Assembly: GCA_030698625.1 (NCBI GenBank)
Contig: JAUYMS010000027.1
Span: 39,781-103,780, forward strand
Reading direction: 5' to 3'
Source: Candidatus Omnitrophota bacterium
GTDB lineage: Bacteria; Omnitrophota; Omnitrophia; Omnitrophales; Aquincolibacteriaceae
Length of the DNA stretch: 64,000 bases
Below, piece after piece: positions 11,197 to 36,273 of the stretch; positions within the stretch are counted from its first letter, which is position 1; every line of letters begins with the position of its first letter. The position numbers and the translations under genes are program-made. Below the pieces are notes generated by a model that saw nothing but the letters and a program-made list of their open reading frames with translations, was not told the origin of the DNA and made no database searches.

Positions 11197-11216
11197 GGCA
11201 GTAACCTCAAATGCGG

Positions 11217-11474
11217 TTAAGCGGCAGCCGCTTTGGATTTTCTCTTGAGACGCTTGATTAAGCTATCAACCGTGGGCGAAAGCCGCGCCCCTTCCTTCAG
11301 CCAGTAATCAAGACGATCTTGCTTAAAAAAGATCTTCTCGTCGGCGGGAAGCGGATCATAGTGTCCGATCTCTTCAATGAAACGGCCATCACGCGGTGAA
11401 CGCGAGTCCGCTACAACGACACGCCACTGTTTACGACTTTTAGTTCCAGTTTGCTTCAATCGAATAGTAACCAA
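11217..11474 (-). CDS. rpsP: 30S ribosomal protein S16
   Basis: MVTIRLKQTGTKSRKQWRVVVADSRSPRDGRFIEEIGHYDP. Confidence 0.9.
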   Translation of the reverse strand: MVTIRLKQTGTKSRKQWRVVVADSRSPRDGRFIEEIGHYDPLPADEKIFFKQDRLDYWLKEGARLSPTVDSLIKRLKRKSKAAAA

Positions 11475-11495
11475 AATCTTATCCTCCTTTTTTCC

Positions 11496-20380: not shown

Positions 20381-21556
20381 TTACTTCTTGCCAGCCGGCG
20401 CAGCGCCCGTGACCCGCGCCGAAAGCTCCTTCGGATCTTGAGCAACTGCCATCATGATATCGTAGCTTATAATCCCCGCTTGATACAGCTCCCGCAAATG
20501 GTCATCTAGGGCTTTCATGCCGTATTTCAGACCGGTCTGAATCTCGGAGGTAATCTGGTAGGTCTTGTTTTCGCGTATGAGGTTCCTAATAGCCGGGGTT
20601 GCGATCATGATCTCGAAGCACCCCACCCGGCCCTTCCCATCCAGCCGGGGCAGCAGCACTTGTGAAATAACGGCAACGATGGTTGACGCCAGCTGAATGC
20701 GGACCTGCGTCTGCTGATGCGACGGAAACACGTCAATGATGCGATCCACCGTACGGGCAGCCCCGGTCGTGTGCAGGGTCGAGAACACCAGATGCCCTGT
20801 CTCAGCCGCTCCCACCGCCGCTTCCATGGTGGCCATATCGCGCATTTCACCGATGAGGATAACATCAGGATCCTGACGCAGAGCCTTAACAACGGCCTCC
20901 GCGAAACTCGGCACATCTTCACCGACTTCGCGCTGCGTGATAATCGCCTTTTTATGGTTGTGCACGAACTCAATCGGGTCTTCGGCGGTAATAATATGTT
21001 TTGCGGAATTCTCATTGATGTAGTTCAGCATCGTGGCCAAAGACGTTGTTTTGCCCGAACCAGTCGGACCGGTAACAAGTATCAGTCCGCGCGGTCGCGA
21101 CAACAGATCGATCATTTGCTTGGGTAGCCCGATTTGTTCGAAGGTATAAAAACGGGAAGGCAGCAGACGCAAGACCATGGCATAATTGCCTTGCTGCTTG
21201 AAACAGGAAACCCGGAACCGCACCCGATTCTCATAGGAAAAGCCGAAGTCGATACCGCCGACTTCTTCGACGCGCTTGCGCTGCTCCTCGGTCGTAATTT
21301 CACCTGCGAGCTTTTCGGTGTCTTCCGCCGTTAAAGGCGTGTCGTCAATCGAGACAAGGTCACCGTGAAGGCGCACGCTCTTCGGTCTGCCCACGGTCAA
21401 ATGGATGTCCGAAGCATCTTTCTCAATTGCAAAATTCAGAATCTTCTCGATCGCCATGGGCTCACCTTTCCGAAGTATAGCACGCCAAATGCCGCCCTCT
21501 TTCTTTACGGCTGCGGGGAAGTAAAAATTAAGGGAGGATTCCCTGAAGCCCGGCAA
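20381..21556 (-). CDS. pilT: Type IV pilus retraction ATPase PilT
   Basis: Walker A GPTGSGKTT, Asp box, His box and AIRNLIRE motif. Confidence 0.85.
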   Translation of the reverse strand: MPGFRESSLNFYFPAAVKKEGGIWRAILRKGEPMAIEKILNFAIEKDASDIHLTVGRPKSVRLHGDLVSIDDTPLTAEDTEKLAGEITTEEQRKRVEEVGGIDFGFSYENRVRFRVSCFKQQGNYAMVLRLLPSRFYTFEQIGLPKQMIDLLSRPRGLILVTGPTGSGKTTSLATMLNYINENSAKHIITAEDPIEFVHNHKKAIITQREVGEDVPSFAEAVVKALRQDPDVILIGEMRDMATMEAAVGAAETGHLVFSTLHTTGAARTVDRIIDVFPSHQQTQVRIQLASTIVAVISQVLLPRLDGKGRVGCFEIMIATPAIRNLIRENKTYQITSEIQTGLKYGMKALDDHLRELYQAGIISYDIMMAVAQDPKELSARVTGAAPAGKK

Positions 21557-22070
21557 GGATCAACGCGCAAAGAGAGGCCGTCAAAAATAAAATCGGCGCT
21601 CCCCGGACGGGTTGCGGCACGTCAGCAAACAGCAATCTCTGACGCATTCCGAGAATCAGGATTCGGTAGGTCGTAATGAGTACGCTGAATTGCAGACACA
21701 TTAAAAGATAAACGGCCGGCGCGGCCTTGGAGTGATAGAGAAGGAGATAGGTTGTAAAACCAAAAAGGCTCAAAAAAAATGCCGCTGACTTGTGCTGACC
21801 CATTCCTGAGATTACGAAAGCCGCAGGCAGGGCATATAAAACGGCGGGCGGTTCCCAACCGCCCCCAACAGGAATACGTCTTAGTAAAACATAGCAAGCA
21901 ACCAGCAACGCACTTTTAATCCCGAGCTCAATGCCTTGTCCGGCAAGGCTTTGCAGAGCACCCGGCAGAATGCCCCGCCTCTGAGAAAAATCATTTTCGG
22001 CACTCTCTTCGCTTTGGGCAAAACAGAGTAAGGTCCCAAAGGCGATAACCAGCTGCAGCCAATCGATCAT
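21528..22070 (-). CDS. RnfA/NqrE-like membrane subunit
   Basis: C-terminal RQRLLFADVPQPVRGAPILFLTASLCALILAGLQG aligns closely with RnfA/RsxA ([28 protein letters not shown]). Start set at internal ATG 22070, forming an ATGA overlap with the upstream gene. Confidence 0.65.
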   Translation of the reverse strand: MIDWLQLVIAFGTLLCFAQSEESAENDFSQRRGILPGALQSLAGQGIELGIKSALLVACYVLLRRIPVGGGWEPPAVLYALPAAFVISGMGQHKSAAFFLSLFGFTTYLLLYHSKAAPAVYLLMCLQFSVLITTYRILILGMRQRLLFADVPQPVRGAPILFLTASLCALILAGLQGILP

Positions 22071-22576
22071 GACGGTTTTAACCTCCCGAGAACAATTTGG
22101 CCCATCCAAGCAATACCGGCCAGAACGAGAAACCCCCCGATCGGCCCCTGGAACGTGGGAATAAGCGCTTGAACACCGAGCCAATGCCGGAAAGCTGCGG
22201 CGGTGATAACAACCGTCGGAAGACCGGCGCCTTGGAGCAAGCCGACCCTAACAGAATATTTTTCTTCCGCGTTACCGATGACTGTCGGCCACGTAAGAAA
22301 TGCCGGTCCTATAATCCAGAGCGGCGAAAAGTCAAAAAGATAAACCGTCGACTGACTTAACACCGTAAGCCACAGGATCCAGGCCGTTGACCGCAGGCGA
22401 TCCGGAAAAAGGAAGCCCCCAAGGCGAAATATGATCATCGTGCTCCAAATAACCGCCGCTGCCGCCAACGCGTAATAGACAGCCTCTCGCAGGTGGGACG
22501 AAACCAGTAACACTGGAACGGCCGCCAGCAACATGCGAAAGCTCGGGCAATCTTCGATCCTCACGCTCTTAGTCAC
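22067..22576 (-). CDS. RnfE/NqrD-like membrane subunit (GTG start)
   Basis: 169-aa polytopic membrane protein between the RnfD-like and RnfA-like genes, coupled to both by stop-start overlaps. Assignment rests mainly on position and hydropathy. Confidence 0.45.
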   Translation of the reverse strand: MTKSVRIEDCPSFRMLLAAVPVLLVSSHLREAVYYALAAAAVIWSTMIIFRLGGFLFPDRLRSTAWILWLTVLSQSTVYLFDFSPLWIIGPAFLTWPTVIGNAEEKYSVRVGLLQGAGLPTVVITAAAFRHWLGVQALIPTFQGPIGGFLVLAGIAWMGQIVLGRLKPS

Positions 22577-22710
22577 GTCGCCGAATCTCCGATACTATAA
22601 AGCCAGGCACTGTAAACCATGCAGGCAAGCCCCGCGACAAATGCGGCAAAGTATAAGTACTTCATCGCTTCAATCCACGGTTTTGACGGTCTCGTTTTTG
22701 CTTCTCTCAT
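22573..22710 (-). CDS. Small single-TM protein (45 aa) in the RnfG/NqrC position
   Basis: Translates to MREAKTRPSKPWIEAMKYLYFAAFVAGLACMVYSAWLYSIGDSAT. Its ATG overlaps the RnfD-like stop as ATGA, and its TGA overlaps the GTG start of the next gene as GTGA. Confidence 0.4.
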   Translation of the reverse strand: MREAKTRPSKPWIEAMKYLYFAAFVAGLACMVYSAWLYSIGDSAT

Positions 22711-23525
22711 AGAACCTTTGCATTTCTTGGTCGCACGATCTGATCGAACCAAGGCGTCAGTCCGTTCATAACCAGGACAGCCATAAAAATGCCGTCACTA
22801 TGTCGCATGACCTCGCCCAATAAAACCGCCATGACGGCGGTGCCCATCGCAAAAAAGCGCAAACCTCGCCGTGTCTGGGGTGTCGTCACAGGATCCGTGA
22901 TCAAAAAAAAGGCCGCGAACAGAGCACCTCCTCCGATATCCGTAGACAGAAGCGCATAGACGCCTAAAAAAATTACCGGAACTTCCCAGCGAATGAGCCT
23001 AAACCCGACAAGTATGCCCGCTCCCAGAAATAGGCCGACGGGTGACCCGAAACCGATGGCTCCCCCTTCGATGGCCAGCGGAAAACTCACCTGCATCAGC
23101 ACCCGGCCCGCAACAGCCGCATGAAGCGGATAAGCCCCCGGCCCTCCAAACATTTCCTTAATTAGAATAACCGCGATAGCGCTCGTCAGAGCTGCCGCCC
23201 AGGAGGGTGCGGAAGCCGGTAGCATTAAGGCTACTAGCAGTCCCGTTAATACGGCATCACCGCTCTTCAGGCTGATATTTTTGCCGCGGGCCGTCCGCGC
23301 CAGGACTTCCGAAACCAGGGATGCAGAAACAGCCACGCCGATGAGACGCAGGCTATTCCAGGCATTCGCCGCGACAGCTGCGCCTAGAACAGGCGTCAGG
23401 GCCAGGGCAGTAAGCCAGAGAATCGACGGCACGGAGCGCTCAGTTCGTATATGGGGTGCTAAACCCTGTTTATAAGAGGTCACCATAAGAAGCTCTAAAC
23501 TATCAGCAATAAATGAATTGTGCAA
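22707..23525 (-). CDS. RnfD/NqrB-like membrane subunit (short, 272 aa)
   Basis: FFLITDPVTTP matches the conserved RnfD/NqrB ...FF(M)xTDPVT motif. Polytopic and Gly-rich. Confidence 0.6.
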   Translation of the reverse strand: MHNSFIADSLELLMVTSYKQGLAPHIRTERSVPSILWLTALALTPVLGAAVAANAWNSLRLIGVAVSASLVSEVLARTARGKNISLKSGDAVLTGLLVALMLPASAPSWAAALTSAIAVILIKEMFGGPGAYPLHAAVAGRVLMQVSFPLAIEGGAIGFGSPVGLFLGAGILVGFRLIRWEVPVIFLGVYALLSTDIGGGALFAAFFLITDPVTTPQTRRGLRFFAMGTAVMAVLLGEVMRHSDGIFMAVLVMNGLTPWFDQIVRPRNAKVL

Positions 23526-23573
23526 CTATGCGCCGGATAGACAACATATCTATAGATGTAGGGGCTCCGGGCC

Positions 23574-23612
23574 TCCTTGCAATGCCTAGGGGCGTCGGGT
23601 AGACTCTGTTCT
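23574..23612 (+). promoter_or_regulatory. Candidate sigma70-type promoter for the PilZ-acyltransferase operon
   Basis: TTGCAA-N17-TAGACT in the 194-bp divergent intergenic region, about 110 bp upstream of the ATG at 23720. Confidence 0.25.
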
Positions 23613-23719
23613 GTAAGGAATGATACCTTTGAGACTTATATTGGGATGGTCTTTGGGAGCCGATAACTGCTTCAGCCTACATTACTTAAGCGCTTTATAA
23701 ATAACATCATATTCTGATC

Positions 23720-24973
23720 ATGAAAATTAAATCGTCTTTAAACTGGGAACTGGGAATTGGCATACTGGAAGACAACGTATTTGGCCAATGCCCAAAACCT
23801 CAGGAATTGCCTTTCGCAGACCGGCGGCGGGAGCCGAGAATTTCCATGAGTCTCCCGATTCGCTACCGCTCCCAAGCACGCCCCGGCCCCAATTGGCTAG
23901 CTGCCCAGTCAATAGATATATCGCGCAACGGGGTTCGTCTGGCTCTGGAGCAACCCATAAAAGTGGGTAACCGCATTGAACTCGATGTGAAGCTGCCCGA
24001 GACCGACGGCACAATACGAATGGAGGGCATCATTGTCTGGGCCAATCCTTCCTCAAACGGCAAAGATATAACCGAGTGCGGGGTCGCCTTTCAGAATCTA
24101 CGCAAACTCACACAGAAGGAAAAAATAATCTATTTCATGGCGGACAAGATCTGCAGCCTTGCTCACCGCCATGCCACGGATCTCGTTGCCACACCCGCGA
24201 ATTCATTGGATGAGATCAAGGAAGCGTATGAGCTTGTGTACCGTGAATATCTTGCCCGCGGCTACTGTGAAGCCAACCCTTCCAAAATGCACTACAACGC
24301 GCATTGCATGTTTCCCGATTCCCGGGTATTCACTCTGCGTCGCGACGGCCGTCTCCTCGGAACACTGTCACTCATTCCGGATTCGCCCTGCGGCATACCT
24401 CTTGAACACCTCTTTCCCCAGGAGGTCGCACGATTAAGACGCCCGGGACGGCGGATTGCCGAGGTAAGCCTACTTGCTCTCAACGGTGAGTATTTTAAGA
24501 AAAAGACTTTTTCCCTTACAGATTTCCAGAAACTCACCGGATCATTTAGGCTCTTCAAGGTCATGTTCGATTACGCACGTTTTGAGGCGCGTGTGACGGA
24601 TATCGTCATCGGAATGCACCCAAAGCATGAGGAGCTGTATCGCTACCTGTCTTTCGAAACGATCGGTCCCACAAAATCCTATTCCAATGCCTGCGGCAAA
24701 CCGGCTCTCCCTATGTGGATGGACATTCCGCGCAACATAAGCACGGTTTCACTCAAACACGGTGCAGGCTATTACTTCCTCAAGGATGTCATCACGCAGG
24801 ATATCCTGGCCCGTCAATTCCGCTGGAACACCGAAGCCGTACGCGACCTTTTACTTCGACGTCCGCCGCTTTGGAATATGATGCCGATTGCCGGTTGGCA
24901 ATATCTTAAACACTGCTATCCGGGTCTCCATTCCACCAAGCCCCAAACCCCGACTCACGGCTCAAAAACGTAA
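23720..24973 (+). CDS. PilZ domain fused to N-acyl amino acid synthase-like (FeeM/OlsB-type GNAT) domain
   Basis: N-terminus has RxxxR (RREPR) followed by D-I-S-R-N-G (DxSxxG), the PilZ c-di-GMP-binding signature. The C-terminal ~270 aa resemble the FeeM/OlsB-type N-acyltransferase fold (YREYLARGY...FTLRRDGRLLGTLSLIPD...AEVSLLAL). Confidence 0.55.
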   Translation: MKIKSSLNWELGIGILEDNVFGQCPKPQELPFADRRREPRISMSLPIRYRSQARPGPNWLAAQSIDISRNGVRLALEQPIKVGNRIELDVKLPETDGTIRMEGIIVWANPSSNGKDITECGVAFQNLRKLTQKEKIIYFMADKICSLAHRHATDLVATPANSLDEIKEAYELVYREYLARGYCEANPSKMHYNAHCMFPDSRVFTLRRDGRLLGTLSLIPDSPCGIPLEHLFPQEVARLRRPGRRIAEVSLLALNGEYFKKKTFSLTDFQKLTGSFRLFKVMFDYARFEARVTDIVIGMHPKHEELYRYLSFETIGPTKSYSNACGKPALPMWMDIPRNISTVSLKHGAGYYFLKDVITQDILARQFRWNTEAVRDLLLRRPPLWNMMPIAGWQYLKHCYPGLHSTKPQTPTHGSKT

Positions 24974-24975
24974 TC

Positions 24976-26070
24976 ATGAAAAACGATATTCACGAAATCA
25001 TCCGGAAAGGGATACTCGCACCATCCGCAGATAATCTCCAACCGTGGCTTTTCAAAATCGGAGCGGACAACCTTGAGCTGTGGCTTGACGCAAAGCGCTC
25101 GGAAAATTTCTGCGACGCCGGGTATCTAGCCCCTTACATCTCGATCGGTGCCGTCATTGAGAATATGCGAATCGCCGCTGCCGATCGCGGCTATCGCATG
25201 ACTTGTTCCTATTTCCCGGATAAGAAAAATAAGACAAGGGTCGTCACAATCTCCTTCGAAAAGGGAGAAAAGGAGACATCCCCTCTTTTGCCGTTCATAG
25301 GCAAGCGACGCACAAACCGGAAGTTTTACGCTTCACGCCCGAGTGTCGCTCCCGCCGCAAAAGCATCGCTTGAGGAAACAGTATGCGAAGAAGGATTCCG
25401 ACTACACTGGGTAGCGAAAGATGAATCGCGCTACCAAGATCTGTGTAGTATGATCGGTGATGCCGATCAGTTGCGTTTTGAAAACCAAAGACTACACCGA
25501 GAATTTAACAATATATTGCGTTTTACTAAACCGGCGATAAGCGGTGGTGACGGCTTAGACATTAAGACCCTGGAGTCGGGTCCCACGGGGCCCCTTCTTT
25601 TTAAGTTGATGGGCCAGTGGTCCCGGCAAAAGTTTCTGAATAATCTCGGTATTAGCCGGGTCTTCAATGCGTACGCAAAGATCCAGATGCAGTCATCGGC
25701 AGCTGCGGGCCTGATCACGGCCCCCTCTCATGCCCCTGAGGATTATGTTCGCGGGGGGGAGCTCATGGAGCGCCTCTGGCTTGAGGCCACCCGGCAGGGG
25801 CTTTCCCTGCAACCGATGGAAGCACTACCCATTTTTATCATTAACCGGCAACTGCGCAATTTAAGCGATTTTTCAGAAGCTCAAAAGGCGACCATCGAAC
25901 GGCTGACGGCAAATTTCTTTTCGCTCTTCGGTATTAACAATAAGGACGGGCTCATTTTTCTATTCCGCATTGGTCACGCCAAGCCCACCACCACACAGGC
26001 CCTCAGACGCCCGATCGATTCCTTTCTGATGAACAGCGCCGATACAGGAGTTAAATATGTCGTCTCCTGA
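24976..26070 (+). CDS. Two-half-domain nitroreductase-family FMN protein
   Basis: The N-terminal half has the nitroreductase signature APSADNLQPWLF; the second half has RRTNRKF (RRxxRxF). 364 aa; starts 3 bp after the upstream stop. Confidence 0.6.
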   Translation: MKNDIHEIIRKGILAPSADNLQPWLFKIGADNLELWLDAKRSENFCDAGYLAPYISIGAVIENMRIAAADRGYRMTCSYFPDKKNKTRVVTISFEKGEKETSPLLPFIGKRRTNRKFYASRPSVAPAAKASLEETVCEEGFRLHWVAKDESRYQDLCSMIGDADQLRFENQRLHREFNNILRFTKPAISGGDGLDIKTLESGPTGPLLFKLMGQWSRQKFLNNLGISRVFNAYAKIQMQSSAAAGLITAPSHAPEDYVRGGELMERLWLEATRQGLSLQPMEALPIFIINRQLRNLSDFSEAQKATIERLTANFFSLFGINNKDGLIFLFRIGHAKPTTTQALRRPIDSFLMNSADTGVKYVVS

Positions 26071-27010
26071 GTTTGATTACTCCCAAGCTTTCGACCGCAA
26101 CATCGGTTGGCTCACGAAACACGAGCAAGAAAAACTGCGCGGCATCTGCGTCGCTATCGCAGGCCTCGGCGGCGCCGGTGGGTTTCAAGCGCAGGCCCTG
26201 GCCCGTCTCGGCGTCGGGAAATACCGGATTGCCGATCCGGACACTTTTGAAATATCCAACCGAAATCGCCAGATCGGCGCCACGGAGTCAACAGTGGGCC
26301 ACCCCAAGGCCACAACGATTCGTGACATGATTCTTGCCATCAACCCAACCGCCTCAGTAGAAATTTATCCGGAGTGTTTCAGCACGGCCAATGCCGGCGC
26401 AATCCTGGAAAGCGCTGATGTGGCCATAGATGGCATCGACTTCTTCTCTATCGACGATAAAATTCTATTTTTTCAGGAATGCCGAAAACGCGGTATCCCA
26501 GCCATCACCTCTTGCCCTTTGGGCTTCGGCGCATCTCTGATGGTCTTTTCTCCGCAGGGCATGACGTTTGAGGATTACTTTAATTTCCGGCCGGACATGA
26601 GTGAGAAGGATAAGAGAAACAGTTTCGCCTTCGGGCTTTCTCCTTCGCCCCTTTGTTTGAGCTATATGAATCCTGACGCCTTCGGGTCCGACAACAAGCG
26701 CGCCGCGAGCGTTGTTCCGGGACTCATGCTGGTGGGCGCGCTAACAGCGACAGAAGTGGTAAAGCTCGTTACGCATATGGCCCGGCCGAATTCCTGCCCA
26801 CATGTCTATCAGATTGATTTAATGACGCAGCGCGTCAGCAAGAAATATTATCGCTGGGGAATGAGAGGCCCTTGGATGCGCTGTAAGAAAGCGCTGGCCC
26901 TCAAATGGGTGGAGTACAAGCGCCGTAGGCATGCGTCAAATCCAAGCCTTGCGGCTTCGCCGCCGGATGAACATAAGCAAACGGGGAGTGCTCGCCATGC
27001 GGTTTCTTAA
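26057..27010 (+). CDS. ThiF/MoeB-family E1-like adenylyltransferase (non-canonical, no C-terminal CxxC)
   Basis: Rossmann motif IAGLGGAGGF and E1-like ...ADPDTFEISNRNRQ. 14-bp overlap with the upstream nitroreductase gene. Confidence 0.7.
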   Translation: MSSPEFDYSQAFDRNIGWLTKHEQEKLRGICVAIAGLGGAGGFQAQALARLGVGKYRIADPDTFEISNRNRQIGATESTVGHPKATTIRDMILAINPTASVEIYPECFSTANAGAILESADVAIDGIDFFSIDDKILFFQECRKRGIPAITSCPLGFGASLMVFSPQGMTFEDYFNFRPDMSEKDKRNSFAFGLSPSPLCLSYMNPDAFGSDNKRAASVVPGLMLVGALTATEVVKLVTHMARPNSCPHVYQIDLMTQRVSKKYYRWGMRGPWMRCKKALALKWVEYKRRRHASNPSLAASPPDEHKQTGSARHAVS

Positions 27011-27764
27011 ACCAGTCTTGATGGCCTGGGCCGTCGTGTTGAGCCTGATTCCCACACTCAAAGCAGAAACCACGCCGCCGGGCGCTACGGAACTCCTACG
27101 CCGAATGGACCAGGTCCTCCGAGGTGATTCTCACGACATGACCGTAACGCTTGATGTTATAACAGCCCGCTGGGAACGCCATTACAAAATCCGGGTTCGC
27201 ATGCAAGGAATCGACTATGCGTTCGCGCGAGTCTTGGAACCTTCAAAAACCGAGGGACAAGGTTTCTTGAGAATCAAGGCACGTCTCTGGCAATATTTAC
27301 CGACGGCGGAACGCACTATTCTCATACCTCCTTCCTTGATGCTTGATGATTTCATGGGCAGCGATTTTTCCAATGATGACTTCGTAAAGCTTAGCTACTT
27401 GCCGCGGGACTACGACGCTAAGATTGTTGCCGAAGATACAATCAGTGGTTTTGAAGTGCTCGGACTGGAGCTTATTCCTCGCCCTGATGCCCCTGTCACA
27501 TACGGCAAACTTGAAGTTTGGCTGCGAAAGACCGATGCGGCACCCGTACGCTGGCTCTTTTATAATGAAAAAATGCTCTTGATAAGAACTCTGCATTACT
27601 CTGAATTTAAACAATTCGGAACCCACGATATCCCAACCGTATGGCGCATGGAGAATCATCTCGAAGCCGGTCACGAGACCACCGTTACCGTGCTGTCGGC
27701 GGCCTTCGACACTCCGATCGCCCAATCCCAATTCACACGAGAAAACCTAGAAAAGTATCCCTGA
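26997..27764 (+). CDS. LolA-like periplasmic lipoprotein-sorting/lipid-carrier family protein
   Basis: Start at ATG 26997 gives signal peptide MRFLKPVLMAWAVVLSLIPTLKAE. Size and composition fit LolA-like proteins of the kind often found next to FtsX-type ABC transporters. Overlaps the ThiF gene by 14 bp. Confidence 0.5.
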   Translation: MRFLKPVLMAWAVVLSLIPTLKAETTPPGATELLRRMDQVLRGDSHDMTVTLDVITARWERHYKIRVRMQGIDYAFARVLEPSKTEGQGFLRIKARLWQYLPTAERTILIPPSLMLDDFMGSDFSNDDFVKLSYLPRDYDAKIVAEDTISGFEVLGLELIPRPDAPVTYGKLEVWLRKTDAAPVRWLFYNEKMLLIRTLHYSEFKQFGTHDIPTVWRMENHLEAGHETTVTVLSAAFDTPIAQSQFTRENLEKYP

Positions 27765-28987
27765 TGTTTCTCTTCAAGCTCGCGTTTCTTAATATCACCC
27801 GGAATGTTCGCAGGTCCCTAATCACTGTGATGGCTGTCGGCGTCGGTCTCGCCGCGCTTATCTTCCTGTGGGGATTTAATGACGGCACAATCGAGCAGAT
27901 GCGCGAGAACGTCATACGCCTTTTTACGGGCCATGTGCAGATTCATGCTCGCGGCTTCGAAAAATCGCTCTCCCCTGAGCTCTTTCTTGCACAGAGAGAA
28001 AAGGTTCTCATCGATGTTGCGGCAAACCCGGCCGTCTCACGAATCACCGAACGCGTCAAATGCGAAGCGCTTGTCGGCACGAGTGAGAACTCGCGCGGAG
28101 TTCTTTTGGTCGGAGTAGACCCCGAACGTGAAAGACAGATTACCGATCTCGAGGACCACATTGAGGCGGGACGCTATTTGGAGCCGGACGGAAATCGCGA
28201 GATACTAGTCGGAGACCGACTGGCCAAAAAAATAGGCCTCGATCTGGATGACAAAGTCGTCGTGATGACGCAGGCGATGGACGGGACTTTGGCCGGTTAT
28301 GCCTATCGCGTCAAAGGCATCTTTCACACAGGGAGCCAGCAGATTGACGAGGTTTCGGTTTATATCACGCTGGCATCCGCCCAGGAATTACTCGGGCTTG
28401 GGGAAGATGTTCATGAGATTGTGATCCAGCTTTCAGACCGCAAGGGAATAGAACCGTTTCTTGAGTGGGCGAAGATCAGCCTCGGTAGCGAAAAATACGA
28501 GGTTTTGAAGTGGAATGAGCTTATCCCCGAAGTTGATCAATGGACGCAGTGGGCCGAAGCAGTCATTGGAACTATTTTGATCGCCGTCATGGTCGTTATC
28601 GGGGTCAGCATTATGAACACGGTGCTCATGTCCATATATGAAAGGACCCGCGAACTCGGCGTCATGATGGCCATCGGCACAAGCCCCTCCCAGATCGTAC
28701 AACTCATACTGCTTGAGACGCTAATTCTGGAAGGTCTCGGTATTATTCTGGGTTTAGTGGGCGGGTACCTCGTTACAATTTATTTCGGAGAAGTCGGAAT
28801 CTCATTCCACGGCGTCGAAGAGGCCTTTTCGCGTTCTTATATGAGCACGGTTGTCTTCACTAAAGTGGAATGGCCACATGTGGTTCAGTCTGTTATTACG
28901 CTAATTCTCTTAACATCATTCATCGGACTCTATCCGGCCTGGAAGGCATCCCGCATGGAGCCGGTTAAAGCCATCTATTATTCTTAA
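27764..28987 (+). CDS. ABC transporter permease, FtsX/MacB/LolCE type
   Basis: N-terminal TM (ITRNVRRSLITVMAVGVGLAALIF), a ~230-aa periplasmic domain, then three C-terminal TMs (FtsX fold). Its ATG overlaps the LolA-like TGA as TGATG. Confidence 0.75.
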   Translation: MFLFKLAFLNITRNVRRSLITVMAVGVGLAALIFLWGFNDGTIEQMRENVIRLFTGHVQIHARGFEKSLSPELFLAQREKVLIDVAANPAVSRITERVKCEALVGTSENSRGVLLVGVDPERERQITDLEDHIEAGRYLEPDGNREILVGDRLAKKIGLDLDDKVVVMTQAMDGTLAGYAYRVKGIFHTGSQQIDEVSVYITLASAQELLGLGEDVHEIVIQLSDRKGIEPFLEWAKISLGSEKYEVLKWNELIPEVDQWTQWAEAVIGTILIAVMVVIGVSIMNTVLMSIYERTRELGVMMAIGTSPSQIVQLILLETLILEGLGIILGLVGGYLVTIYFGEVGISFHGVEEAFSRSYMSTVVFTKVEWPHVVQSVITLILLTSFIGLYPAWKASRMEPVKAIYYS

Positions 28988-28992
28988 ATATC

Positions 28993-29685
28993 ATGTTCAT
29001 AAAAGCCGAAAATATATCGAAGGTGTTTCAGGACCGCTCGCTCCCAGTCACTGCCCTCAAAGCAGTGAGCGTCGATATTGAGGAGGGGTCCTTTACGGTG
29101 CTCTGCGGGCCGTCGGGTTCCGGCAAGACAACACTCCTAAATCTGCTGGGTTGCCTTGATCGCCCTTCCGGAGGCCGAGTCTTTCTCAGAGGAGAAGAAA
29201 TCAGCGCCCTGTCTCAGGAAAAGCTCACGCGCTACCGGCTGCGGAAAATTGGCTTTGTTTTTCCTGATTTTAATCTCATTCCGACTCTGAGCGCCGTAGA
29301 AAATGTAGAGTATGTCCTTTGGCTTCAGGGCATCTCCGGAACAGAACGCCGCAAGCGCGCCGCCGCCATTTGCGAACGCTTTGGCATCGGCGCTCTAATT
29401 CACCGCCGCCCCCGTGAACTCAGCCGCGGACAACAGCAGCGTGTTGCGGTGGCCCGTGCCATCGTTCACAAACCAGAATTGGTTCTTGGCGATGAATTGA
29501 CCTCGAACCTAGATCATAAGACCGGGTCGGAGCTCATGGGTTTCTTAAAAGAATTAAATCGGGAAGAAAAAATGACTTTTATTTATGCCACCCATGACCC
29601 CGTCATGATCGAACGCGCCGGACGCGTGATTCGAATGCAGGACGGCGAAGTCGTCAGCGATGAAAAGACACGCGTTCATGCTTAG
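28993..29685 (+). CDS. ABC transporter ATP-binding protein (LolD/MacB-NBD-like)
   Basis: Walker A GPSGSGKTT, signature LSRGQQQRVAVARA, Walker B LVLGDELTSNLD. Confidence 0.85.
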   Translation: MFIKAENISKVFQDRSLPVTALKAVSVDIEEGSFTVLCGPSGSGKTTLLNLLGCLDRPSGGRVFLRGEEISALSQEKLTRYRLRKIGFVFPDFNLIPTLSAVENVEYVLWLQGISGTERRKRAAAICERFGIGALIHRRPRELSRGQQQRVAVARAIVHKPELVLGDELTSNLDHKTGSELMGFLKELNREEKMTFIYATHDPVMIERAGRVIRMQDGEVVSDEKTRVHA

Positions 29686-30910
29686 GAAGTTCCTAGCCGG
29701 GTATCTAGCCGCAGCATTACTATTGCCGGTTTGCGCGTTTGCCGAGGAAACGACCCAACCGCCGCTGGAAGTCAAACGGCCCTCTTTGAAAATTCAATTT
29801 TCCGGTTACGCCAAGAGCCAGAGTTTCTTTACGCAAACCAGCGGATTCTCTCCTGAGTTTGTCGACAACCCCGCACTCCTCGAACAGGACGAGAACAGCT
29901 TCAATGCTCTGCAGCGATTAAGACTAAAAATTAAAGCGTTGTATAAAATCTCCGATGAGACACGCGTGAGCGCTAACATCCATTATGACCACCAGGCCAA
30001 TTTCGGCACTTTCATTTCAACCGGAGACGCGCGTATCTCGAGAAAACAGGCGGAGGACCGTCAATTTCTTGACTTGAGTCAGACATTGATCGAGAACGAC
30101 GACACTGACTACCAGCATCGGTTGTACCGAGCCAGCGTTTTGCTTGAAACGCGTTATGCCGACGTAGAGATCGGCCGCCAGCAAATCCCTTGGGGAGTCG
30201 GTCACTTCTTCACGCCGACGGATGTCTTTAATTCCTTCAACCCCACACAAATCGAGCTCGAAGAGCGTGACGGCGTGGATGCCCTGCGCCTTAGATCACC
30301 GGCCATTCGAGGCGTTCAGGGCGAGTTTATTTATACGCCTCAGGGACGCCAGCTTCACCCGAGCCGTTTCATGGGCCGCCTATCGGGCGATTTTCGTGGT
30401 TATGAGATCGGAATTCTTGGCGGGCATATCAAGCGAGATAATGCAGTCGGTTTTGACTTCGCCGGTAATATCGGAGATTCATCGGTGCGCGGGGAACTTC
30501 TTTTCAGAAACGCCGACACTGAAAAGGATTATTTGAAATTTACGGTAAACGCTGACTACAATTTCCCTTTCAATCTCTACGGCCTTATCGAATACCACTT
30601 CAACGGCCAGGGACGTCGCGATACAGCTTCTTATCAACTTGATCGGCTCGTCCGCGGGGATATTCGTGAATTGGGCCGCAATTACGGAGCCGTCATGCTC
30701 GGGTATGATGTCACAGCACTGATTCGTTTGGAGAATAGGCTCATCATGAATTTAGATGACGCGAGCCTTTTTCTAAGACCGGAGGTCCAGTACGAGCTCA
30801 GTTCGGATTTGTTGTTTACCCTCGCGAGTCAGTTATTCCTGGGCTCCAACACCGACGAGTACGGAAGGCCGAAGAATCTCTTCTTCGGAGAGTTGACCTA
30901 CTCCTTCTAA
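29660..30910 (+). CDS. Outer-membrane beta-barrel protein (unknown family)
   Basis: Signal peptide ...AALLLPVCAFAEE, alternating beta-strand pattern rich in Y/F/G, C-terminal GELTYSF ending in Phe. Overlaps the ABC ATPase gene by 26 bp. Confidence 0.5.
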   Translation: MKRHAFMLRKFLAGYLAAALLLPVCAFAEETTQPPLEVKRPSLKIQFSGYAKSQSFFTQTSGFSPEFVDNPALLEQDENSFNALQRLRLKIKALYKISDETRVSANIHYDHQANFGTFISTGDARISRKQAEDRQFLDLSQTLIENDDTDYQHRLYRASVLLETRYADVEIGRQQIPWGVGHFFTPTDVFNSFNPTQIELEERDGVDALRLRSPAIRGVQGEFIYTPQGRQLHPSRFMGRLSGDFRGYEIGILGGHIKRDNAVGFDFAGNIGDSSVRGELLFRNADTEKDYLKFTVNADYNFPFNLYGLIEYHFNGQGRRDTASYQLDRLVRGDIRELGRNYGAVMLGYDVTALIRLENRLIMNLDDASLFLRPEVQYELSSDLLFTLASQLFLGSNTDEYGRPKNLFFGELTYSF

Positions 30911-32248
30911 AGCATATCGAATGAGATCTGCCATCGGGCGTTTTGCCGGGCATACATAACTACAGTTTCCGCAACCGATACAAGCTGAAATTCCCCAATC
31001 GGAAGCCATTTCAAAAAGGTCCGCCTCTGCCGCTTGTGTGATCATAACCGGCGATATCTCCACCGGGCAGGCACTGACGCAATCCCCGCAATGAATGCAG
31101 GCATGCACTTCTTCCGGCTTTGTCACTTCATGAGGCAGCGCAAGAATGGCCTCGGTTTGCGCTATGACGCAGGCATCCCAGTCTCGCTGAGCAATGCCTT
31201 TCATTGGGCCGCCCATGAGAATCTTCTCCGGCCCCCGCATCAGCCCACGGCAACTCTTCACGGCATCCTGAAAAGAAATACCAAAGGGCAACCAAATGTT
31301 ACGGGGTTCAATGATGCATTCTCCGGCCACCGTAACCACCCTTTCATATAAGGGTTTGTGGTACCGTACAGCTTCATAGACCGAAAACAGAGTGGCCGTA
31401 TCTTCAATCGCTATGCCCGCTTGATGAGCGAGCTCAAGATAACCGTCTCGCGCGCTCTCGGCGAATCTCAGTTGCATGAGCGCGCCGGCATTCCGAATTA
31501 AATCGATTCCAAGTACGTCGCGAATGAGCGGGAGGGTTTCCGACTGCGGATACCTTTCGGATAATAACGTGACTTTGAAGTGCTTCCACTTGAGGAAGAA
31601 GATCTTGCTCCGCAGGAGTTCCGCGATTTCGGACTTGCTCGCATCAAGAGCAATCACGACCCGCTCCGCCCCTATGAGGCTTCGCATGCTTTCGGCGCCG
31701 CGGAGGATCTCGACAGGATGCGACATCAGGAGTGCGTGGGCCGAAGTAACGTAGGGGTCGGTTTCGCATCCGTTGACAATCAGTGTCCGGAGTTCGCCTT
31801 GCGAAATGGGCTCGTACTTTGCATGCAGCGGATTTCCTGCTTCCATGCTCATCAAACCGCTCTCGCGAAAGATCGCAAATAAATTACTGCGGCTCAGGAG
31901 CTCCCAACCTTCCCTTTCCGAATTGACCTCCGGTGACCACCCGAAGGTTTCATCACCGCTAATCTCGACGGCAAGACCCGTGCCCCCCTTTGAATCGGGA
32001 AATCGATCAATCCGAGTGACCTCCCCGGGCATGCTGGCGTGGGACGGAACAGCATCGGCATCGACGGGCATCGCGACCACTTGGCCGGCTATCACAACAG
32101 TGCCCACTTCGACACAGACTTCCTGCCGGTAAGGCTCGCGCTCCCGGATGAGAATACGCACTTTCGCAGGACGGGTCCTGCTGCGCTTGATAGCCCAAGA
32201 GACCAAGCTTGACTCTTTCTTCGACTCAAGCGCGAGCCCGCCGATCAT
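30833..32248 (-). CDS. RnfC-like electron-transfer protein with two [4Fe-4S] motifs (paralog with a degenerate NADH site)
   Basis: IVNGCETDPYVT (compare RnfC INAAECEPYIT), MGGPMKG (compare RnfC GGPLMG), and CIHCGDCVSACP plus CIGCGNCSYVCP ferredoxin motifs. The GGAGFPT NADH motif is not conserved. Confidence 0.6.
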   Translation of the reverse strand: MIGGLALESKKESSLVSWAIKRSRTRPAKVRILIREREPYRQEVCVEVGTVVIAGQVVAMPVDADAVPSHASMPGEVTRIDRFPDSKGGTGLAVEISGDETFGWSPEVNSEREGWELLSRSNLFAIFRESGLMSMEAGNPLHAKYEPISQGELRTLIVNGCETDPYVTSAHALLMSHPVEILRGAESMRSLIGAERVVIALDASKSEIAELLRSKIFFLKWKHFKVTLLSERYPQSETLPLIRDVLGIDLIRNAGALMQLRFAESARDGYLELAHQAGIAIEDTATLFSVYEAVRYHKPLYERVVTVAGECIIEPRNIWLPFGISFQDAVKSCRGLMRGPEKILMGGPMKGIAQRDWDACVIAQTEAILALPHEVTKPEEVHACIHCGDCVSACPVEISPVMITQAAEADLFEMASDWGISACIGCGNCSYVCPAKRPMADLIRYALEGVGQLSEEEILRPSVLVGVGAQE

Positions 32249-33165
32249 AAAGTATTCACTGCCTCGTTAAGTCGCCCCTGACGGTAACCTTCGGAATCCA
32301 TTTCCACTGCGGCGAAGCCGAGTTTTCGCAATGTAACGGAAATTCGCTCACGCAAATCGGCGTCATTCATCAGTCGCCCGAGTTCCGCCCCGCCCACTTC
32401 CACGCGGGCTATGGTTCCGCCGTGGCGAACACGTACAATGTGAAAGCCTTCGGCCTTTATCGCGTGCTCTGCTTCGTCAATCATCCGTAGCTTTTCAGCC
32501 GTCACAGACTCCCCGTAGGGAACACGGCTTGAGAGACAGGGGGCCGCCGGTTTATCCCAATTCGGAAGACCCAGGTCTTTGGCAATTGCCCGCACTCTCG
32601 CTTTATTGATACCGGCTTCACACAGCGGGCTGCGGACATTACGCTCACGCCCTGCTGCGATACCGGGACGCCAATCCCCGAGATCATCGGTATTCACACC
32701 GTTGGCAATTATTTTCAGACCCCATTGTTCCGCAAGAGGAAAGAGATGATCGTACAGCTCAGTCTTGCAGTAGTAACACCGGTTATGCGGATTGCGCGCG
32801 TAGTTTGCATTATCCAATTCCCGCGTCTCGACCCATTCATGCCTAAAACCGTGTTGGTGCACCATCTCGTCAATCCAGCCGGCCTCACGAACGGGCAAGG
32901 ACTCGCTTCTCGCCGTGACAGCCAACGCACGATCCCGGCCAAGTATATCGTAAGCCACTTTCATCACAACCGTCGAATCGACACCTCCCGAAAAAGCCAC
33001 GAGGACGCTGTCGTACGATGCGACTATCTGACGCAGCTTCAATAACACTGACCTATCCAATCCAACCGCCCCCAATAACCTTCGTGTCGTCATAGAAAAC
33101 AGCCGCCTGCCCCGGGGTAATGGCATCTTGAGCGTCATCAAAATGAACTTCCACCGCACCGTCAT
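32245..33165 (-). CDS. PP-loop ATP pyrophosphatase, LarE-like (TIGR00268-type sulfur transferase family)
   Basis: PP-loop VAFSGGVDSTVV, conserved Cys in PCLSSR. The track start overlaps mnmA by 113 bp, so the real start is probably an internal or alternative codon. Confidence 0.6.
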   Translation of the reverse strand: MTVRWKFILMTLKMPLPRGRRLFSMTTRRLLGAVGLDRSVLLKLRQIVASYDSVLVAFSGGVDSTVVMKVAYDILGRDRALAVTARSESLPVREAGWIDEMVHQHGFRHEWVETRELDNANYARNPHNRCYYCKTELYDHLFPLAEQWGLKIIANGVNTDDLGDWRPGIAAGRERNVRSPLCEAGINKARVRAIAKDLGLPNWDKPAAPCLSSRVPYGESVTAEKLRMIDEAEHAIKAEGFHIVRVRHGGTIARVEVGGAELGRLMNDADLRERISVTLRKLGFAAVEMDSEGYRQGRLNEAVNTL

Positions 33166-34160: not shown

Positions 34161-34943
34161 TTAAACCGGCAGGCTTGGAACGGAATAAATCTGGTCAACT
34201 TGTATCCGTTCTTGAAAAATTTCCTTCAACCGTCCATACCTGCATGTATCCACGTCGAGGTCATCCATTTCAGGCAGGGATCCGAGAACAGGTACACCGG
34301 AGAGCTCGTGAATGACTTTTGGGTTGGTGATTTCAGCCAATGAGACATTCGTTTTGGCCATACGATTGAAAATTACACCGCGCACTTCAAAACCGCGGAT
34401 CACTGCAGCATCGATTGTCAAAAGCGTGTGGTTGATCGCTCCGAGCCCCCCTTTTGAAACAATGAGAAGGGGAAGCTGAAATTCACGGACTAAGTTCGCG
34501 ACAAAATAGTCTTTGGAAAACGGCACGAGTAAGCCGCCGATCCCTTCCACAATGATAAAATCGTAGTTTTTCTGCAATTCTCCGAACGATCTTCGAATCT
34601 GCGGCAGGTCGACCTCGCGCTTCTCCAAAACCGCGGCAACGCTTGGGGCGAGGGCGTGACGGTATCGCACAGGACTGGTTAAAGGCGGGTACTCATTCTC
34701 GGCCGCCTCTAAGAGATAGGCGCTATCATGACAGATCAGACGTTTGCCAAATTCCATACAGCCCGTTCCTACGGGCTTCATGACACCCACCTTCATCCCC
34801 CGGGATTTCAATGCCATGGCCAAACCGGCAGCCACGACGGTTTTTCCGACTCCTGTATCGGTTCCAGTAATAAAAATTCCCGGCTTATACGCAGGCATAC
34901 GCCCCGCCTTTCTCTTTAACCGTCGCCTCGATAATCGACGCAT
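34161..34943 (-). CDS. bioD: Dethiobiotin synthetase
   Basis: P-loop GTDTGVGKT and conserved BioD core. Confidence 0.85.
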   Translation of the reverse strand: MRRLSRRRLKRKAGRMPAYKPGIFITGTDTGVGKTVVAAGLAMALKSRGMKVGVMKPVGTGCMEFGKRLICHDSAYLLEAAENEYPPLTSPVRYRHALAPSVAAVLEKREVDLPQIRRSFGELQKNYDFIIVEGIGGLLVPFSKDYFVANLVREFQLPLLIVSKGGLGAINHTLLTIDAAVIRGFEVRGVIFNRMAKTNVSLAEITNPKVIHELSGVPVLGSLPEMDDLDVDTCRYGRLKEIFQERIQVDQIYSVPSLPV

Positions 34944-36273
34944 AGGTTATGTCCAACAAATCGCCTAACTCATCTATCGTCATTGCAAGCGGGGGCATTA
35001 ACACCACAACTGCGCCCAACGGCCGAATAATTGCCCCCTTTTCACGGGCTTTGAGAATCACCTGATGGCCGATCTGCTCTTCAGCAGCAAACGGGGCCTT
35101 TGCCGCCTTGTTGCGAACGAGTTCAATCCCCACCATAAATCCTGCCTGCCGCACATCCCCCACCGTCTCAAGCACGGAGAAATTTTTGAGTCTTTCGGTC
35201 AGAAATCGAATCTTCGGTTGCAATGCCTCAAGAACGCGGTTCTTTTCAAACAGTGCCAGATTCGCTAGTGCCACACGGCAAGCAAGCGGATTGGCTGTGT
35301 ATGTATGGCCGTGAAAGAACGTCTTGTACTCCCCATACTCGCCCAGGAAAGCCTCGTACACCGCTTCGGTGGCAAGAGTTGCTGCCAGAGGCATATAGCC
35401 CCCGGTAATCCCCTTGGCAAGCGCCATCAAGTCAGGGGTAATACCTTCGTGTTCACTCGCAAACATCGCACCCGTTCGTCCAAAACCCGTGGCGACTTCG
35501 TCAAAAATCAAAAGCACATTGTATTTGCGCGCCAAGTCTCGGGCTCCTGAGAGATATCCGGCGGGCTGATCAATCATACCTCCGGCCCCCTGAATAACAG
35601 GTTCCATGATGAGGGCGGCAATCTCTTCGTGATGGGCGCCGAGCACCTCTTCCATCTTCACAAGCGCTTCTCTGCGTACCTGCTCCGGATCATCGCCGGT
35701 CGGCCAGCGGTAGCGGTAAGGTGTCGGCACCGTATAGGTTTTAAATAATAACGGATGAAAAATCTCGTGAAAGAGATCAATGCCGCCGACACTCACTGAT
35801 CCTAGAGTATCTCCGTGATAAGCCAACGACAACTTAGCAAATTTAGTTTTTGAAGGTTTCCCTTTATGCCGCCAATACTGGAGCGCCATCTTGACGGCCA
35901 CTTCCACTGCGGCAGAGCCGGAATCGGAATAGAAGACGCGAGAGAGTCCGGGAGGAGCTATCGAAATAAGTTTTTCGGCCAGCTCGATCGCCGGAACATT
36001 TGAAAGCCCGAGGAAAGTGGAGTGAGCAACCTGCCCAAGCTGATCCACTATGGCTTGATCCAGCTCCGGCACTTGATGTCCGTGCACGTTACACCAAAGC
36101 GAAGAGACGCCGTCGAGGTACTTCCGACCCCGCACATCTTCAAGATAAACACCGCGAGCCCGCTCAATGACGAGCATCTCATCACGGGCCCAGTCTCTCA
36201 TTTGTGTAAACGGATGCCAAAGGTAGCGCTTATCTTTCGCCTGTAAGGATTCGAATCTCGACTGTGCTTGCAT
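34885..36273 (-). CDS. bioA: Adenosylmethionine-8-amino-7-oxononanoate aminotransferase
   Basis: Class III aminotransferase with PLP-Lys region (FDEVATGFGRTG); located in the bio cluster. Confidence 0.85.
   Translation of the reverse strand: MQAQSRFESLQAKDKRYLWHPFTQMRDWARDEMLVIERARGVYLEDVRGRKYLDGVSSLWCNVHGHQVPELDQAIVDQLGQVAHSTFLGLSNVPAIELAEKLISIAPPGLSRVFYSDSGSAAVEVAVKMALQYWRHKGKPSKTKFAKLSLAYHGDTLGSVSVGGIDLFHEIFHPLLFKTYTVPTPYRYRWPTGDDPEQVRREALVKMEEVLGAHHEEIAALIMEPVIQGAGGMIDQPAGYLSGARDLARKYNVLLIFDEVATGFGRTGAMFASEHEGITPDLMALAKGITGGYMPLAATLATEAVYEAFLGEYGEYKTFFHGHTYTANPLACRVALANLALFEKNRVLEALQPKIRFLTERLKNFSVLETVGDVRQAGFMVGIELVRNKAAKAPFAAEEQIGHQVILKAREKGAIIRPLGAVVVLMPPLAMTIDELGDLLDITYASIIEATVKEKGGAYACV

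Follow-up and report, generated by a model that had tools for sequence, protein, structure and literature searches.

We identify a seven-gene operon in a 64,000-nucleotide stretch of a Candidatus Omnitrophota genome (assembly GCA_030698625.1, contig JAUYMS010000027.1; the whole stretch is hereafter the window), and we propose that it encodes the synthesis and envelope export of a lipid derived from an N-acyl amino acid, most likely an N-acyl oxazolone or a ring-opened N-acyl-dehydro-amino acid. Judging from sequence, we hold this reading to be reasonably probable. The operon itself is real and conserved in Omnitrophota. Its open reading frames (ORFs), g1 to g7, run along the plus strand from 23720 to 30910, and the other genes of the window lie almost all on the minus strand. 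The products predicted for g1-g3, a FeeM-type synthase of N-acyl amino acids (NAS), an FDO-type nitroreductase and a ThiF-like cyclase, are those of the published acyl-oxazolone cassette, whose chemistry is already known. What is new here, relative to the literature that we searched, is the fusion of the NAS to an N-terminal PilZ domain, the linkage to export genes and the host phylum, and not the chemistry.

A conserved seven-gene operon

The seven genes are tightly packed, with adjacent frames either overlapping or lying no more than 5 nt apart, as read from the sequence. The stop codon of g1 (TAA, 24971-24973) is followed after 2 nt by the ATG of g2 at 24976, where the original prediction had counted a 3-bp gap (24973/24976). 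The g2/g3 overlap is 14 nt (26057-26070), as is the g3/g4 overlap (26997-27010) when g4 starts at ATG 26997; g4 and g5 have TGATG in common, with a 1-nt overlap at 27764, and g5 and g6 are 5 nt apart, all as originally described. The predicted 26-bp overlap of g6 and g7 holds from ATG 29660 and shrinks to 8 nt from ATG 29678, the start chosen in an independent 410-aa gene call. Such independent calls, made on a public contig with identical proteins, give g4-g7 lengths of 255, 407, 230 and 410 aa and thereby fix the starts of these genes; for g4, ATG 26997 leads into a signal peptide and agrees with the 255-aa call. The longest ORF of g1 opens at ATG 23720, and a competing database call is 375 aa; we prefer 23720 because the first 30 residues of g1 are kept in homologues. 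The first gene had been placed from 23526, and the interval 23526-23719 is intergenic, common to g1 and a divergent RnfD-like gene. The junctions support the single-operon architecture that had been predicted.

A protein search returned 64 clusters related to g1, almost all being 400-430 aa PilZ-FeeM fusions encoded in metagenome-assembled genomes (MAGs) of Candidatus Omnitrophota and named at most "PilZ domain-containing protein". Gene contexts, obtained by contig look-ups and a scan of GTDB species genomes, were compared by tblastn. The full set of seven is present in five further Omnitrophota genomes, with protein identities of 46-72%, and this joint recurrence in five other loci places the arrangement beyond chance. 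The co-conservation that the original prediction had left to a comparison of gene neighbourhoods is therefore borne out. Gene order and flanks are identical to the window in three of these loci (L003, L005, L064). L007 carries the full set with g2-g7 inverted relative to g1, and L010 a rearranged full set with a DUF1302-type barrel. The same order is found in L008, with a g2 match that spans only 44% of the query (11159-11641 of that locus) and may reflect a pseudogene or an assembly error.

The composition of the wider set of clusters is more varied. Of the PilZ-NAS loci, 17 are non-redundant and have 6 kb or more of flanking sequence; 12 of these 17 carry, within 12 kb, a pump together with a barrel and a LolA-like gene, in several gene orders and orientations, while ThiF is present in 9 and ThiF together with FDO in 6. 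The pump is of the ABC type in some NAS loci and of the MMPL/RND type in L001, L028 and L029, and the LolA-like/barrel pair stays. L001 combines a PilZ-NAS with two B12/radical-SAM-type proteins, ThiF, a beta-eliminating lyase, a LolA-like protein, DUF1302 and an MMPL pump, and in L009 two NAS genes are accompanied by an SDR, an AMP-dependent ligase and g4-g7, with no ThiF or FDO at the locus. NAS genes without PilZ are linked to ThiF, with or without FDO, and to LolA-like, DUF1302 and either MMPL or ABC genes in L028 (unclassified) and in L029 and L030 (both Thermodesulfobacteriota). Phycisphaeraceae loci have NAS, ThiF and FDO without export genes. Conversely, L062 (Pseudomonadota) and L063 (Elusimicrobiota) contain a stand-alone export set, comprising a LolA-like gene, two FtsX permeases, an ABC ATPase and a g7-like barrel, with no NAS nearby. 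Because the export set also stands alone and the NAS clusters vary in their partners, the operon is a join of two modules, one for biosynthesis and one for transport, and this join has been made repeatedly.

Two tandem NAS paralogues are found in many clusters (L010, L015-L021, L029-L031, L046, L050), and the FtsX permease is duplicated in L017 and L021, together with the ABC ATPase in L017; these tandem and duplicated genes suggest product mixtures or heteromeric enzymes. In L011 (13260-19184) the NAS and ThiF genes are split from the export genes by an insertion of defence or selfish genes, namely two AAA_14/DUF4143 ATPases and an AbiEii toxin.

The biosynthetic genes

The first gene (g1, 23720..24973, plus strand) encodes a protein of 417 aa with a PilZ domain (aa 34-137; Pfam E 5.8e-16), a FeeM-type NAS domain (aa 168-335; Pfam E 8.6e-35) and a conserved C-terminal helical extension. 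Profile searches, to which the fold of the C-terminal domain had been left, place it within FeeM, and the domain assignments of the original prediction were all reproduced by Pfam. Against PDB sequences g1 matches FeeM (2g0b, E 1.5e-11) with the IAEVS motif aligned, and the predicted catalytic E248 within this motif is invariant among 39 homologues. With a FeeM/acyl-homoserine lactone-synthase fold and the catalytic Glu, g1 has the features expected of the NAS of an oxazolone cassette. Its PilZ domain contains RRREPR (R36 and R40 of RxxxR) and DISRNG (G71 of DxSxxG); R36, R40 and G71 are invariant, and S68 nearly so, in the same 39 homologues. The RxxxR and (D/N)xSxxG motifs mark g1 as a predicted receptor for cyclic di-GMP (c-di-GMP).

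Similar fusions are known from metagenomic clones. Nas354 and Nas343 are NAS-PilZ proteins that yield N-acyltyrosine biosurfactants, and in Nas354 Glu103 of the same IAEVS motif is essential (PMC4897644). Like them, g1 is a FeeM-type NAS fused to PilZ with the same catalytic-Glu motif. Unlike g1, in which PilZ is N-terminal, these proteins have the NAS domain at the N-terminus and PilZ at the C-terminus, and no ThiF, FDO or export genes were reported on their clones, which consist of alphaproteobacterial-type DNA. The reverse-order NAS-PilZ fusion is thus known, whereas the N-terminal PilZ fusion to an NAS is not described in the literature that we searched.

The second gene (g2, 24976..26070, plus strand; Pfam Nitroreductase) encodes a duplicated Acg-like protein of the nitroreductase superfamily, a predicted desaturase. 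Its best NCBIfam matches are the FDO halves (C-terminal oxidases) of the Rv1355c (TrzS) family (233.9 bits) and of PRK14851 (222.7 bits), and it scores 164.9 bits with the Acg family, under the cutoff of 199; among PDB sequences it matches Acg (2ymv, E 1.8e-7). These similarities make g2 a probable member of the Rv1355c/Acg-type FDOs. The third gene (g3, 26057..27010, plus strand; Pfam ThiF E 5.7e-43) encodes a ThiF/MoeB-type adenylating enzyme of 317 aa, predicted to act as an ATP-dependent oxazolone cyclase. It passes the NCBIfam cutoff for PRK08223 (302.6 bits, cutoff 266), scores 219.8 bits with PRK14851 and about 84-87 bits with ThiF and MoeB proper, and matches the ThiF half of the Rv1355c family weakly (54 bits); the literature on PRK08223/MoeW was uninformative. 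Aligned with E. coli MoeB (1jw9), g3 retains GLGGxG, SN..RQ and PK, and its Asp128 aligns with MoeB Asp130; the corresponding Asp of the ThiF domain is required in TrzS (PMC12856293). g3 therefore appears to be a ThiF-like enzyme with intact adenylation residues, of the kind that adjoins or is fused to an FDO.

The subfamily placement of g2 and g3 rests on the NCBIfam models, a Rhodococcus Rv1355c-family protein that aligns by BLASTP with both g2 (E 3e-24) and g3 (E 5e-14), and a fusion protein of Desulfovibrio (Nitratidesulfovibrio) vulgaris. A tblastn search of g2 and g3 against plasmids recovered this fusion, Rhodococcus/Mycolicibacterium Rv1355c-family genes and one Bdellovibrio match, and no Pseudoalteromonas or Mycobacterium tuberculosis sequence.

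The D. vulgaris protein, DVU_RS16045 of D. vulgaris Hildenborough plasmid pDV1, is a 989-aa NAS-ThiF-FDO fusion (NCBIfam PRK14852). BLASTP aligns the NAS part of g1 to residues 7-245 of this protein (E 9e-24), g3 to residues 314-601 (35% identity, E 5e-55) and g2 to residues 616-986 (E 7e-35), and the NCBIfam models PRK14852, PRK14851 and PRK07877 depict the same fusions. Such fusion proteins argue, by Rosetta-stone logic, for a functional link among g1-g3. DVU_RS16045 is collinear with the g1 NAS domain, g3 and g2 and has a separate small PilZ gene nearby; it differs from the operon in being one protein, uncharacterised, in an XrtA/PEP-CTERM exopolysaccharide locus with no adjoining Lol-like cassette. 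That locus (L059, NC_005863.1 28266-47378) also encodes a chain-length determinant, a polysaccharide export protein, a TIGR03013 glycosyltransferase and several PEP-CTERM proteins, with the stand-alone PilZ gene DVU_RS16025 and a sigma-54 regulator near DVU_RS16045. Here, in a strict anaerobe, the pathway is for a second time, and independently, associated with c-di-GMP and with functions of the biofilm type.

The original prediction held that no described pathway combines these enzymes. For g1-g3 this was mistaken, the combination having been published for OxzAB, TyzACB and TrzAS. In Pseudoalteromonas (P. rubra) and other Proteobacteria, the NAS OxzA and the ThiF-nitroreductase di-domain oxazolone synthetase OxzB yield tyrazolones and phenazolones (de Rond et al., bioRxiv 10.1101/2020.06.11.147165). 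In the N-acyl tyrazolone pathway of M. tuberculosis, Tyr or Phe is N-acylated by TyzA, an O2-dependent desaturation is the work of the nitroreductase-superfamily FDO TyzC, and an ATP-dependent cyclisation that of the ThiF homologue TyzB; mmpL9 adjoins the cluster (Grigg et al. 2023, PMC10404671). TrzA and TrzS (Rv1356c and Rv1355c) make N-acyl tryptazolones, with cyclisation before desaturation (PMC12856293). The same triad is carried by N-acyl-dehydrotyrosine producers, including Planctomycetota, in which a related cassette has been proposed for stieleriacines (PMC12479983). The ThiF chemistry is proposed to be carboxylate adenylation followed by ring closure (review PMC12596934), and the predicted outline of N-acylation, carboxylate adenylation by the E1-like enzyme and flavoprotein oxidation matches the published mechanism. 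A match to a characterised pathway had been named beforehand as evidence against novelty, and g1-g3 provide that match because a FeeM-type NAS with ThiF and FDO is the published oxazolone pathway.

Among these systems, TyzA, TyzB and TyzC (Rv2336, Rv2338c, Rv2337c) have, as predicted here, FeeM-fold NAS, ThiF and FDO as three separate proteins, with a stand-alone ThiF-like cyclase of ~318 aa, a monomeric FDO of ~370 aa, adjacent ThiF and FDO genes and a lipid-transporter gene (mmpL9 in Tyz) beside the cluster. The Tyz cluster belongs to an actinomycete host and, unlike the operon, is without PilZ, LolA-like carrier, ABC pump and outer-membrane barrel; tyzA is divergent from tyzCB, and the likeness to Tyz is known from published descriptions, not sequences. 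The three catalytic domains of OxzA/OxzB and TrzA/TrzS are those predicted for g1-g3, and the chemistry proposed for them is the same. In OxzB and TrzS, however, ThiF and FDO form one polypeptide, whereas g3 and g2 are two overlapping genes, and the OxzAB and TrzAS clusters, unlike this one, have no PilZ domain and no export genes.

The final product could differ from an oxazolone. It could resemble the stieleriacines or thalassotalic acids, which are stable N-acyl-dehydro-amino acids, or the activated carboxylate could be passed to another nucleophile, and we regard this as rather improbable. Oxazolones were not detected in the N-acyl dehydrotyrosine producers with the same triad (PMC12479983), they are lost to hydrolysis in a matter of hours at pH 8 and during acidic work-up (bioRxiv 10.1101/2020.06.11.147165; PMC12856293), and the replacement of FDO in L001 by radical-SAM enzymes and a beta-eliminating lyase points to varied tailoring. 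Every triad reconstituted in vitro, on the other hand, yielded oxazolones, and this alternative departs from our explanation in the final product only, the pathway logic being equal.

The pairing of an E1-like protein with a nitroreductase-superfamily FMN dehydrogenase is established for thiazole/oxazole-modified microcin (TOMM) systems, which the original prediction had mentioned. On this reading the pair would have a ribosomal peptide as its substrate, and genes for YcaO and for the precursor would lie outside the operon. We consider such a system, or any azol(in)e-forming ribosomally synthesized and post-translationally modified peptide (RiPP) pathway, highly unlikely and have rejected it. 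No YcaO or SagB/McbC-type dehydrogenase is found among the Pfam and NCBIfam matches listed for the seven proteins, g2 probably belongs with the Rv1355c/Acg-type FDOs, the catalytic adenylation residues of g3 are intact, unlike a non-catalytic docking protein, and the three enzyme domains are fused to an NAS in D. vulgaris.

The putative transport genes and their proposed cargo

The remaining four genes encode a putative envelope transport set. The product of g4 (26997..27764, plus strand; 255 aa) is a secreted LolA-superfamily protein and predicted periplasmic lipid carrier (LolA_like/TP_0789-like, PF17131, E 3.6e-45), which matches 9tp6, 3buu, 3bk5 and 4z48 in the PDB (E 1e-13 to 5e-10). It has a signal peptide, the N-terminus being MRFLKPVLMAWAVVLSLIPTLKA/ETT as read from the sequence, and the protein contains no cysteine, so g4 is not a lipoprotein. 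g5 (27764..28987, plus strand; 407 aa) is predicted to be a MacB/LolC-type (type VII) ABC permease with a periplasmic domain (MacB_PCD E 1.1e-15, FtsX E 2.1e-19), and since the operon has one permease gene only, a homodimer is implied. g6 (28993..29685, plus strand; 230 aa; Pfam ABC_tran E 3.5e-29) encodes a LolD/MacB/DevA-type ABC ATPase, in whose translation we read Walker A GPSGSGKT, the signature LSRGQQQR and a Walker B/catalytic DE.

The product of g7 (29678..30910, plus strand; 410 aa, or 416 aa from ATG 29660) is a predicted outer-membrane beta-barrel of about 18 strands that ends in ELTYSF. The AlphaFold2 model (pLDDT 93.8, pTM 0.85) shows the ~18-stranded barrel and resembles Occ/OprD porins, AlgE and Wzi. 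No Pfam family matches g7 above threshold; its score for DUF1302 (PF06980) is 14.6 bits (E 0.016; threshold 23.2), the match lying at IGRQQIPWG, an IGxQxIxWG motif shared with that family. DUF1302 is matched by 11 of 56 g7 homologues (best E 5.5e-7), the DUF1302 protein of L001 aligns with g7 by BLASTP at E 5e-4 over 41 residues, and in variant NAS clusters a DUF1302 protein takes the same position in the export set. g7 is probably a compact, distant DUF1302 relative.

Like LolCDE-LolA-LolB, the set combines a type VII ABC extractor that bears a periplasmic domain with an ATPase in the cytoplasm and a soluble LolA-fold carrier. It differs from Lol in having a single permease gene in place of LolC and LolE, a carrier that belongs to PF17131 only and not to the LolA family, and an 18-strand barrel in place of the outer-membrane lipoprotein LolB; Lol cargo is lipoproteins, whereas the cargo here is likely a small lipid. 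A canonical Lol pathway was rejected on these grounds (one permease, PF17131 carrier, no LolB at the locus) and on the scores of g5 for lolCE (145 bits, far under the cutoff of 362) and of g6 for LolD (205 bits, under the cutoff of 307.75).

Other known or proposed precedents carry hydrophobic small molecules. DUF1302/DUF1329 (LolA-like)/RND cassettes include AmeABCD of Castellaniella defragrans, characterised as an efflux system (PMC6394551), and Sama_1588-1591, a Shewanella cofitness cluster (PMC6394551; bioRxiv 10.1101/072470). Aryl-polyene clusters have LolA/LolB-like proteins and an RND pump, the ApeL/ApeN/ApeM set (bioRxiv 10.1101/2020.12.19.423268), and a MacB-like/LolA-like/Omp85 cluster of Borrelia is a further transport precedent. 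As in AmeABCD, Sama_1588-1591 and ApeL/ApeN/ApeM, an outer-membrane barrel, a LolA-superfamily protein and an inner-membrane pump occur together here, and the variant NAS clusters L001, L028 and L029 use precisely DUF1302, a LolA-like protein and MMPL. In contrast to those sets, the pump here is ABC, the carrier is PF17131 and not DUF1329, and there is no BNR-repeat partner; g7 is ~200 residues shorter than AmeA (605 aa) and lies under the DUF1302 threshold. The published oxazolone work that we searched makes no mention of a LolA-like protein, ABC pump or outer-membrane protein, the nearest hint being mmpL9 beside tyz, and the coupling of an oxazolone cassette to a LolA-like/ABC/barrel export set is not described in that literature.

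Collectively, these comparisons suggest a pathway of five steps, of which the first three are proposed because the proteins are homologous to enzymes reconstituted elsewhere and keep the catalytic residues. The FeeM domain of g1 would move a fatty acyl group from acyl-CoA or acyl-acyl carrier protein (acyl-ACP) to the amino group of an amino acid, which by analogy is likely to be aromatic. g3 would then adenylate the free carboxylate with ATP, attack by the amide oxygen closing the oxazolone ring, and g2, as a predicted FMN-dependent FDO, may install an alpha,beta double bond, a reaction that in characterised systems consumes O2 and either precedes or follows cyclisation. From gene linkage and folds, we suggest that g5 and g6 extract the amphiphile from the outer leaflet of the inner membrane and pass it to the carrier g4, which would deliver it to g7 for insertion into, or passage across, the outer membrane. 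The PilZ domain, with its conserved binding motifs, would make the first committed step responsive to c-di-GMP.

Several points weigh against this proposal. The export cassette occurs alone, without NAS, ThiF or FDO, in Pseudomonadota and Elusimicrobiota genomes, and for this reason it is a general module whose cargo is inferred from linkage only. The tryptazolones of mycobacteria are reported to be mainly cell-associated (PMC12856293), and characterised FDOs need O2, TyzC being O2-dependent (PMC10404671). On the latter point, the window encodes a cytochrome c with a cbb3/FixO-like domain, and the strict anaerobe D. vulgaris also has the fusion. MacB/LolC-type pumps work from the periplasmic leaflet, which leaves an inner-membrane flipping step unaccounted for. 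Finally, the exact subfamily of the enzymes relative to OxzB, TyzB and TyzC rests on models and two relatives.

Some of these points favour the view that two independent modules share one operon, with g1-g3 making an intracellular or inner-membrane lipid and g4-g7 forming a Lol variant for other cargo, such as lipoproteins or another envelope lipid. We give this view a minor but appreciable chance. In L062 and L063 the export set, with its two permeases, stands beside unrelated genes, g5 and g6 are nearest to LolCE and LolD among named NCBIfam families, and mycobacterial tryptazolones are for the most part cell-associated (PMC12856293). Yet g3 is joined to g4 by a stop-start overlap, and the NAS association outlasts inversions, duplications and the swap of ABC for MMPL in Omnitrophota, Thermodesulfobacteriota and an unclassified MAG. 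The LolCE and LolD scores are also far under their cutoffs, the carrier is PF17131 and LolB is missing from the locus.

Transport could also run inwards, with g4-g7 taking up a hydrophobic compound, for example from a host cell, for modification by g1-g3. Clusters for the catabolism of hydrophobic substrates do contain some DUF1302/LolA-like/RND sets (bioRxiv 10.1101/072470), and host dependence is hinted at by a protein of the window that resembles TLC-type ATP/ADP transporters. Against import, ABC systems of the MacB/LolC type, which have one cytoplasmic ATPase and lack a substrate-binding lipoprotein, are known to extract or export. AmeABCD was characterised as an efflux system (PMC6394551), and NAS enzymes use cytoplasmic acyl-CoA or acyl-ACP and amino acids, and we judge import to be quite unlikely.

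Regulation, genomic setting and significance

Upstream of g1, a promoter-like element on the plus strand (23577..23605) consists of TTGCAA (23577-23582), a 17-nt spacer and TAGACT (23600-23605), and its core bases are invariant in an alignment of g1 upstream regions from five genomes. It may act as the g1 promoter. Scans for sigma-70 promoters and terminators gave no more sites than shuffled sequence did. With the threshold set at 9/12 there were none upstream of g1, and this element was missed because only 8 of its 12 consensus positions match. Between the element and the g1 start codon lies a leader of ~110 nt (23630-23719 region) with a short block, TTTGAGAC, near 23630-23640 that is conserved across genomes. 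A riboswitch or other leader RNA, such as a c-di-GMP riboswitch, was rejected as an upstream element, an Rfam E-value search of 22500-32500 having returned no match, leader block included.

The genes on either side of the operon, an RnfC-like gene (30833-32248) and the RnfD-like gene (22707-23525), are both on the minus strand, opposite to it, and the placement is the same in L003, L005 and L064. The 3' ends of g7 and the RnfC-like gene overlap by 78 nt (30833-30910). The RnfD-like gene is followed downstream by an ORF with a weak Rnf-Nqr match (22067-22576, E 1.8e-4), an ORF without Pfam match and a type II/IV secretion ATPase (20381-21556). A full Rnf operon was dismissed as context, the RnfC-like and RnfD-like genes and the one weak Rnf-Nqr match being all that was found.

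About 5.4 kb past the operon end, a GGDEF diguanylate cyclase of 258 aa (36294-37070, minus strand; E 1.3e-40) lies in a biotin-synthesis-like cluster with BioD-like (34161-34943), BioA-like (34885-36273) and BioF-like (37067-38326) genes, a ketoacyl synthase, an SDR and BioB (40226-41251), an arrangement that is the same in L064. The PilZ domain of g1 could receive c-di-GMP from this cyclase, to which it is linked by proximity only. Elsewhere in the window, a 938-aa multihaem cytochrome c with MtrC/MtrF-like, c7/c3-like and cbb3/FixO-like domains and a cytochrome c assembly protein are encoded at 56214-59030 and 62460-63992 (both minus strand); these genes are relevant to whether the organism meets O2, which characterised FDO desaturases need. 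A membrane protein of 799 aa (6680-9079, minus strand) matches the TLC ATP/ADP transporter family (E 1.6e-12) and MFS_1. TLC-type nucleotide transporters are typical of energy parasites, and this one would fit a host-dependent lifestyle of the Omnitrophota lineage.

Bacterial acyl-oxazolones and N-acyl-dehydro-amino acids have no known function in any producer, and the operon offers a clue to both regulation and localisation. A predicted c-di-GMP receptor and a full transport set suggest that these lipids are secreted or sit at the surface and are coupled to the switch between biofilm and motility. A candidate cargo is also provided for the widespread, uncharacterised LolA_like/MacB-type/DUF1302-like cassettes, and Omnitrophota, of which metagenomes are nearly the only record, becomes the fourth phylum with the pathway. 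More tentatively, and at odds that we place well short of even, the PF17131 LolA-like protein, the MacB-type ABC transporter and the 18-strand barrel might form a dedicated trans-envelope route for small acylated lipids that places a reactive, electrophilic N-acyl oxazolone on or outside the Omnitrophota cell under c-di-GMP control. If so, this would be the first cargo for a widespread orphan transport cassette and the first physiological setting for bacterial oxazolones, and these very small bacteria, which may depend on a host, might use the lipid as surfactant, signal or contact weapon.

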